From sequence record NC_054903.1: DNA of 64,000 bases; one strand, 5' to 3'. A program made the position numbers and the translations under genes. Below are positions 25,829 through 26,284 of this stretch, piece by piece. The DNA is from Enterobacteria phage GiZh. Below the pieces are notes generated by a model, which did not search any database, was not told the origin of the DNA, and saw only the letters and a list, made by a program, of their open reading frames with translations. Position 1 is the first letter of the stretch; each line of letters starts with the position of its first letter.

Positions 25829-26284
25829 TTATTTTAAATCATCTGCCCAATCAAGTTTAAGAGGCTCTTTATATTCACGATCTAATACGACCGGAATTTG
25901 TACATCACCGCTAAATGATAAGGGCCCAACATTATAAGACAATGTTATATGCGGTGTGTAATCATCAAAATCATGTGTAGCACCTAGTGCCCGCGCATAC
26001 ATGTGTCGACAGCGCAGATATTCAGAATCTAGCACAAGTACAAGAGTCGATCCATCTTGTGTTTTCCATACTTCTAAATGTCCAGAAGAAGCTACTTCAA
26101 AACTTCCGCTTGATGGAACATACGGAACATTTACTCTTGAATAACATATGGTCGAATGAATTTTTTCTCTAGGAACTGGATTAGGAACACGTAAAGAGCG
26201 CTGGAGTTCTTCCAGCGCATCAAGTGTTAATTCTGAAAACTTAGCTGCTACATAAAGACCCGTTGAAAAGTCTTTAAATTCCAT
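25829..26284 (-). CDS. 57B: gp57B, 2H-phosphoesterase family (T4 57B = anti-CBASS nuclease Acb1)
   Basis: 151 aa with two H-x-T/S motifs (HSTI, HITL) typical of 2H phosphoesterases; sits directly upstream of 57A as in T4. Acb1 equivalence is from literature memory. Confidence 0.75.

Follow-up and report, generated by a model that had tools for sequence, protein, structure and literature searches.

The window, i.e. the whole stretch of phage GiZh DNA analysed here (64 kb), is, as judged from its sequence, Tequatrovirus (T4-like phage) DNA. By blastn, the T4 genome (NC_000866) is collinear with the window over about 48.3-114.0 kb at 91-98% identity, and the mosaic replacements typical of T-even phages are seen. 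Two of its genes, 57B and vs.4, are the subject of this report (Table 1). They lie on one strand, some 10.3 kb from each other, in a block that matches minus-strand genes of T4, and the T4 gene order is kept around both. For vs.4 this order is regB - vs.3 - vs.4 - vs.5 - vs.6, and for 57B it is 1 - 57A - 57B - internal-protein gene. An earlier reading of the letters alone (the sequence-only reading) had placed the gene at 15290-15556 in the vs.4 position, and it does sit between a vs.3-like and a vs.5-like ORF, near regB and vs.6, in the T4 arrangement. In megablast searches against deposited phages, hundreds of Tequatrovirus genomes match the 57B and vs.4 regions at 95-99.5% identity; the closest are JLBYU24, JLBYU31, TH09, PST and T6.

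Table 1. Positions of the genes and sequence features discussed in the text (numbering of the 64-kb window).
Feature	Position	Strand	Remarks
Gene vs.4 (acb2)	15290..15556	-	ATG 15556 to TAA 15290, 88 aa
Shine-Dalgarno-like GAGGA	15565..15569	-	8 nt upstream of the vs.4 ATG; region identical in T4
Hairpin tip, vs.4 codons 44-52	15401..15427	-	four of the five substitutions (L44F, N46S, C50D, F52L), multi-nucleotide changes
Gene vs.5	15549-15770	-	73 aa, full-length PHROG 1986 match; overlaps the vs.4 start by 8 nt
157-aa gene, MKTYQEFITEA N-terminus	17146-17619	-	PHROG 3155, internal virion protein; between a vs.8-like ORF and denV
157-aa gene, MKSYAQFLNEA N-terminus	22481-22954	-	PHROG 2280, unknown function; without T4 DNA counterpart
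Ten tRNA genes (Arg, Asn, Tyr, Met/CAT, Thr, Ser, Pro, Gly, Leu, Gln)	23345-24175	-	T4 has eight
Two internal-protein genes	25189-25488; 25499-25756	-	PHROG 8111 and 3499; 'ipV/ipVI' in phage PST
T4-early-type promoters GTTTACA-17-TACTAT	25815-25787; 25485-25457	-	one before each of the two internal-protein genes
Gene 57B (acb1)	25829..26284	-	ATG-to-TAA ORF, 151 aa
Second catalytic motif H112-I-T114-L (HITL, residues 112-115)	25940..25951	-	read in the sequence; H113/T115 in T4 numbering
First catalytic motif H43-S-T45-I (HSTI, residues 43-46)	26147..26158	-	read in the sequence; H44/T46 in T4 and FBB1 numbering
Gene 57A (tail-fibre chaperone)	26284..26526	-	ORF directly upstream of 57B; one amino acid differs from T4 57A

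Gene starts and differences from T4 in the window

The start region of vs.4 is identical to that of the T4 gene, so the 88-aa reading is taken as correct. A longer, TTG-initiated reading of 100 aa that encloses vs.4 found no support; T4 and PDB entry 7UQ2 use the ATG at 15556. At the other locus the TAA stop of 57A overlaps the 57B ATG as TAATG, an arrangement which suggests that the translation of the two genes may be coupled. In T4 the annotated 152-aa reading of 57B begins with the first of two consecutive ATG codons (ATGATG), overlapping the TGA stop of 57A, whereas GiZh has ATA at this codon and TAA as the stop of 57A (window 26282-26287). Since ATA stands in place of the first ATG, translation must, from the sequence, start here at the second methionine of T4, and our residue numbers are one below those of T4. 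The T4 annotation of 57B may itself be one codon too long. Two antisense ORFs within 57B (25987-26172 and 26001-26144, both on the + strand) found no support. Promoter and terminator scans around 57B and vs.4 gave counts near the shuffle expectation and no dedicated promoter was assigned to either gene; the only convincing promoter sites are the repeated T4-early-type sequences before the two internal-protein genes downstream of 57B.

Several other parts of the window differ from T4. In place of ipI, the gene of the anti-GmrSD internal protein, GiZh has two different small internal-protein genes, and ipII and ipIII, which in T4 lie between denV and gene e (65.4-66.4 kb), are missing from that site. 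The N-termini of the two 157-aa products resemble the capsid-targeting sequence of internal proteins. As ipI is replaced, ipII and ipIII are missing and other genes of this kind are present, the predicted set of injected internal proteins of GiZh is wholly different from that of T4. In the tRNA cluster, the site of the T4 homing endonuclease gene segB is taken by tRNA-Asn and tRNA-Tyr. The mobile endonuclease genes mobD, segC, segD and segE of T4 are absent as well (junctions at 8122-9827, 32077-32082, 57820-57881 and 62650-62670), the mobD region being replaced by ORFs of unknown function, namely a PHROG 944 membrane protein and two PHROG 1502 paralogues. Finally, the annotated T4 Vs.5 has 58 aa and resembles the GiZh vs.5 product over the first 18 residues only. 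Because the likeness of the proteins ends at residue 18 although DNA identity at the 3' end is still about 95%, it seems that T4 vs.5 carries a frameshift or is translated in another frame.

Gene 57B and the Acb1 family

The 57B product is identical to T4 gp57B (NP_049750) in 151 of 151 residues. Hobbs et al. 2022 purified the cGAMP-degrading activity of T4-infected cells by activity-guided fractionation and traced it to gene 57B, the product of which is known as Acb1; the H44A/H113A mutant of this enzyme is catalytically dead (PMC9117128). The GiZh and T4 genes have the same neighbours, and the codon comparison found 7 synonymous and 0 non-synonymous differences between them. As all seven DNA differences are synonymous, this indicates strong purifying selection on 57B at the level of the sequence.

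The Pfam Acb1 family (PF23474, cut-off 27 bits) matches the product over profile positions 1-144 of 144 with 202.7 bits (E=2.6e-60), and the Acb1 crystal structure 7T26 (also 7T27) matches residues 8-148 with E=4.1e-62. The authors of 7T26 describe a 2H phosphoesterase fold (PMC9117128). An AlphaFold2 single-sequence model of 57B had a mean pLDDT of 37.4 and a pTM of 0.30 and is unusable, so the fold assignment rests on homology to 7T26.

The sequence-only reading had taken 57B for an Acb1-family 2H phosphoesterase with the paired motifs HSTI and HITL, and had proposed a comparison with T4 gp57B. Both motifs are present, the comparison gave complete identity, and the family assignment holds. 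Given the Pfam Acb1 score, the motif pair is far more than a chance occurrence. The HxT/HxT catalytic tetrad (H44, T46, H113 and T115 in T4 numbering) is retained just as in T4, and an alignment of 14 Straboviridae homologues at 38-88% identity shows no variation at H43, S44, T45, H112, I113, T114 or L115. Acb1 of Erwinia phage FBB1, whose solved structure (7T26/7T27) shows a 2H phosphoesterase fold with a C-terminal lid, shares the tetrad as well. The FBB1 protein is about two thirds identical to that of GiZh and differs in motif 1, which is H-T-T in FBB1 and H-S-T in GiZh.

RefSeq labels T4 57B and its orthologues 'RNA ligase', the description of PHROG 755 is likewise 'RNA ligase', and there is a weak match between 57B and the Pfam family 2_5_RNA_ligase2 (PF13563; 13 bits, E=0.11), which lies below the cut-off of 27 bits and hence outside that family. 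If these labels were taken literally, 57B would be an RNA ligase or an RNA-repair 2'-5' ligase and not a cyclic-nucleotide nuclease. We give this reading almost no chance, since the label is an old one carried over from the 2H/LigT superfamily, purification of the identical T4 protein was guided by its cGAMP-degrading activity, which is lost in the H44A/H113A mutant (PMC9117128), and the Acb1 family outscores the ligase family by 202.7 to 13 bits. A profile of the 14 Acb1 homologues, run against the PDB, found Acb1 entries and the C terminus of one portal protein only, and no LigT or CPDase chain at E<=10. In other words, the relation of Acb1 to the classical 2H phosphoesterases (LigT / 2'-5' RNA ligase) is, on these profile scores, one of superfamily or fold level only. 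NCBIfam holds no model for either the 57B or the vs.4 product. As the protein is identical to the T4 one that was assayed, the assignment of 57B as Acb1 is as firm as sequence analysis allows.

The portal match lies outside the GiZh window and is noted here as a separate observation. The C-terminal ~130 residues of the portal of cyanophage Pam3 (PDB 8HDS, chain A, residues 486-618) match the Acb1 profile with E=1e-6 and align with both Acb1 motifs kept, as HVTI and HISL. This suggests that the Pam3 portal may carry an Acb1-like 2H phosphoesterase domain as a fusion; no paper in the literature searched names Pam3, portal and Acb1 together.

Gene vs.4 and the Acb2 family

The vs.4 product is identical to T4 Vs.4 (NP_049728) in 83 of 88 residues (94%); the T4 protein (7UQ2; Jenson et al. 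2023) also has 88 aa and its gene also lies between vs.3 and vs.5. PDB entry 7UQ2 ('Vs.4') matches the GiZh product with E=4.4e-53, Pfam PF24729 (Acb2_Tad1_hairpin) with 71 bits (E=9.4e-20, cut-off 27), and PHROG 717, the family cited for Vs.4 homologues by Jenson et al. (PMC10097602), with E=5.6e-32. The PDB entries of PaMx33 Acb2 match weakly (E ~0.09). The gene had first been named as a candidate for Acb2 from its position only; its similarity to Acb2/Vs.4 is strong and the sequence agrees with the guess.

T4 Vs.4 is a hexamer with three bound cGAMP molecules and a Kd of ~30 nM (Jenson et al. 2023, PMC10097602). In the same work cGAMP is held by stacking of Y8 and F82 and by contacts with H11, K23 and R79, the hexamer interface is formed by L29, F33, A66, A73 and A77, and T12I, S74N and A77I are loss-of-function alleles (PMC10097602). 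From this residue list the GiZh product keeps Y8, H11, T12, K23, L29, F33, L60, A66, A73, S74, A77, R79 and F82, i.e. the cyclic-dinucleotide pocket with S74 and the hexamer interface are both complete.

Acb2 of Pseudomonas phage PaMx33 (p26; 8H2J, 8IXZ) has the same Pfam domain, and its Y11/K26 are the counterparts of Y8/K23 of the dinucleotide pocket. It has in addition a second pocket, for cyclic trinucleotides, with R67/T74. This pocket, which marks a subset of the family only, is absent from the GiZh product, which has D61/T68 and is T4-like and not PaMx33-like at all second-pocket positions. T4-Acb2 binds cyclic dinucleotides and not cA3 or cAAG (Cao et al., PMC10312549). The explanation offered is that D61 stands where PaMx33 has R67 and that the unkinked helix with Y37, A57, L60, D61 and T64 would clash with cA3 (PMC10312549). 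As these residues and T68 are the same in GiZh as in T4-Acb2, we predict that GiZh Acb2 should bind cyclic dinucleotides and not cyclic trinucleotides, like that of T4.

The five substitutions relative to T4 are E13D, L44F, N46S, C50D and F52L, none of them at a published cGAMP-binding or hexamer-interface residue. The C50D change leaves a single C47 in place of the C47-x-x-C50 pair that T4 Vs.4 has at the hairpin tip. The distribution of variability along the protein was followed in an alignment of 46 homologues recovered from IMG/VR, in which residues 1-30 and 66-88 are nearly invariant and residues 31-65 hypervariable. Y8 and K23 are found in 46/46 sequences and F82 in 43/46; D13, the GiZh state, is that of the majority (28/46), and positions 44, 46, 50 and 52 carry five to ten different residues each.

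The five substitutions might abolish binding or direct it to another ligand, which would leave GiZh with one working anti-CBASS factor or with a sponge of other specificity. The codon comparison with T4 gives this idea some ground, as 5 non-synonymous changes stand beside 11 synonymous ones and four of the five are clustered in nine codons, with multi-nucleotide changes among them; moreover, Acb2 homologues with shifted specificity, e.g. for 3'cADPR, are known elsewhere (PMC12393519). We nevertheless hold it to be very improbable. The published binding and hexamer residues are all intact, as are the residues proposed to block cA3 in T4-Acb2, the changed positions are the most variable ones of the family, and 58 deposited phage genomes encode a Vs.4 with 99% identity or more to that of GiZh. 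Because the functional residues are unchanged, the changed positions are variable and near-identical proteins recur in other phages, we expect the GiZh protein to be a functional dinucleotide sponge, its affinity and ligand spectrum being inferred from those of T4.

The clustered changes at the hairpin tip, including the loss of the cysteine pair, could also be thought to reflect diversifying selection, either for evasion of a host factor that recognises the Acb2 surface or for tuning of the decoy nucleotides that are bound. We regard such selection as a slim prospect; relaxed constraint on the loop is the simplest explanation.

The two genes also differ in their diversity among phages. By tblastn, 1469 phage records have Acb1 and 1230 have Acb2, and 29 IMG/VR contigs are common to both sets of homologues. 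For Acb1, 497 records are at least 99% identical and only 4 fall at 95-99%, whereas for Acb2 there are 58 records at 99% or above, 194 at 95-99% and 235 at 90-95%. In other words, Acb1 is near-invariant within Tequatrovirus and Acb2 is spread over 90-100% identity, with the changes mostly in residues 31-65.

Acb1 and Acb2 as a pair

We conclude, with a probability of roughly 0.96, that both anti-CBASS genes of T4, acb1 and acb2, have intact orthologues in GiZh. In GiZh itself we observe the sequence identity, the conservation of every published functional residue and the synteny. The sequence-only reading had raised the prospect of two independent anti-CBASS factors in this phage; this conclusion is right, both members having now been identified by sequence. 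The pair as such is already known and nothing new: T4 encodes both Acb1 and Acb2, delta-acb1, delta-acb2 and double mutants have been described (PMC12657218), and both genes appear among the standard anti-defence annotations of a new Tequatrovirus in a genome note of 2026 (PMC13353012), as is routine in this genus.

The biochemical activities of the two GiZh proteins and their anti-CBASS phenotype are inferred from the published work on T4. By this analogy Acb1 would act as a metal-independent 2H phosphoesterase that cleaves CBASS cyclic oligonucleotides, and it would destroy signals in which adenosine is followed by a 3'-5' bond, the trinucleotides cAAA and cAAG among them. The Acb2 hexamer would sequester cyclic dinucleotides in three pockets at the dimer interfaces, the affinity for cGAMP being nanomolar in T4, and the signal would be kept in this way from effectors such as CapV. 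The dinucleotides taken by a T4-type Acb2 would include 2'-5'-linked isomers that are not cut by Acb1 (review PMC10419184). The two mechanisms are unrelated, the ligand sets would overlap without being identical, and the two factors would be partly complementary.

An active sponge may also have a cost. Sponging by Acb2 triggers the Panoptes (OptSE) guard in the T4 work, in which Panoptes-escaping T4 mutants were loss-of-function mutants in acb2/vs.4, Acb2 was necessary and sufficient for Panoptes activation, and Y8A and F82C abolished activation (PMC12657218). The GiZh allele retains Y8 and F82, so by the same analogy the intact acb2 should expose GiZh to the Panoptes defence and would be a predictable liability here too. 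A stronger version of this view is that Acb2 acts in many hosts chiefly as a liability rather than as a countermeasure. We consider this version possible but on the unlikely side: acb2 has been kept in hundreds of Tequatrovirus genomes, which speaks for a net benefit, and sensitivity to Panoptes is an added consequence of Acb2 and not an alternative identity for it.

Taken as the orthologues of acb1 and acb2, the two genes have a practical side in annotation, as many Tequatrovirus records still call them 'RNA ligase' and 'hypothetical protein' and correct naming would be useful. For the phage itself, the pair predicts resistance of GiZh to CBASS signalling by cGAMP, cUA or cAAA. The predicted resistance to CBASS and the predicted sensitivity to Panoptes would both bear on the choice of phages for therapy against E. 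coli that carry CBASS or Panoptes.
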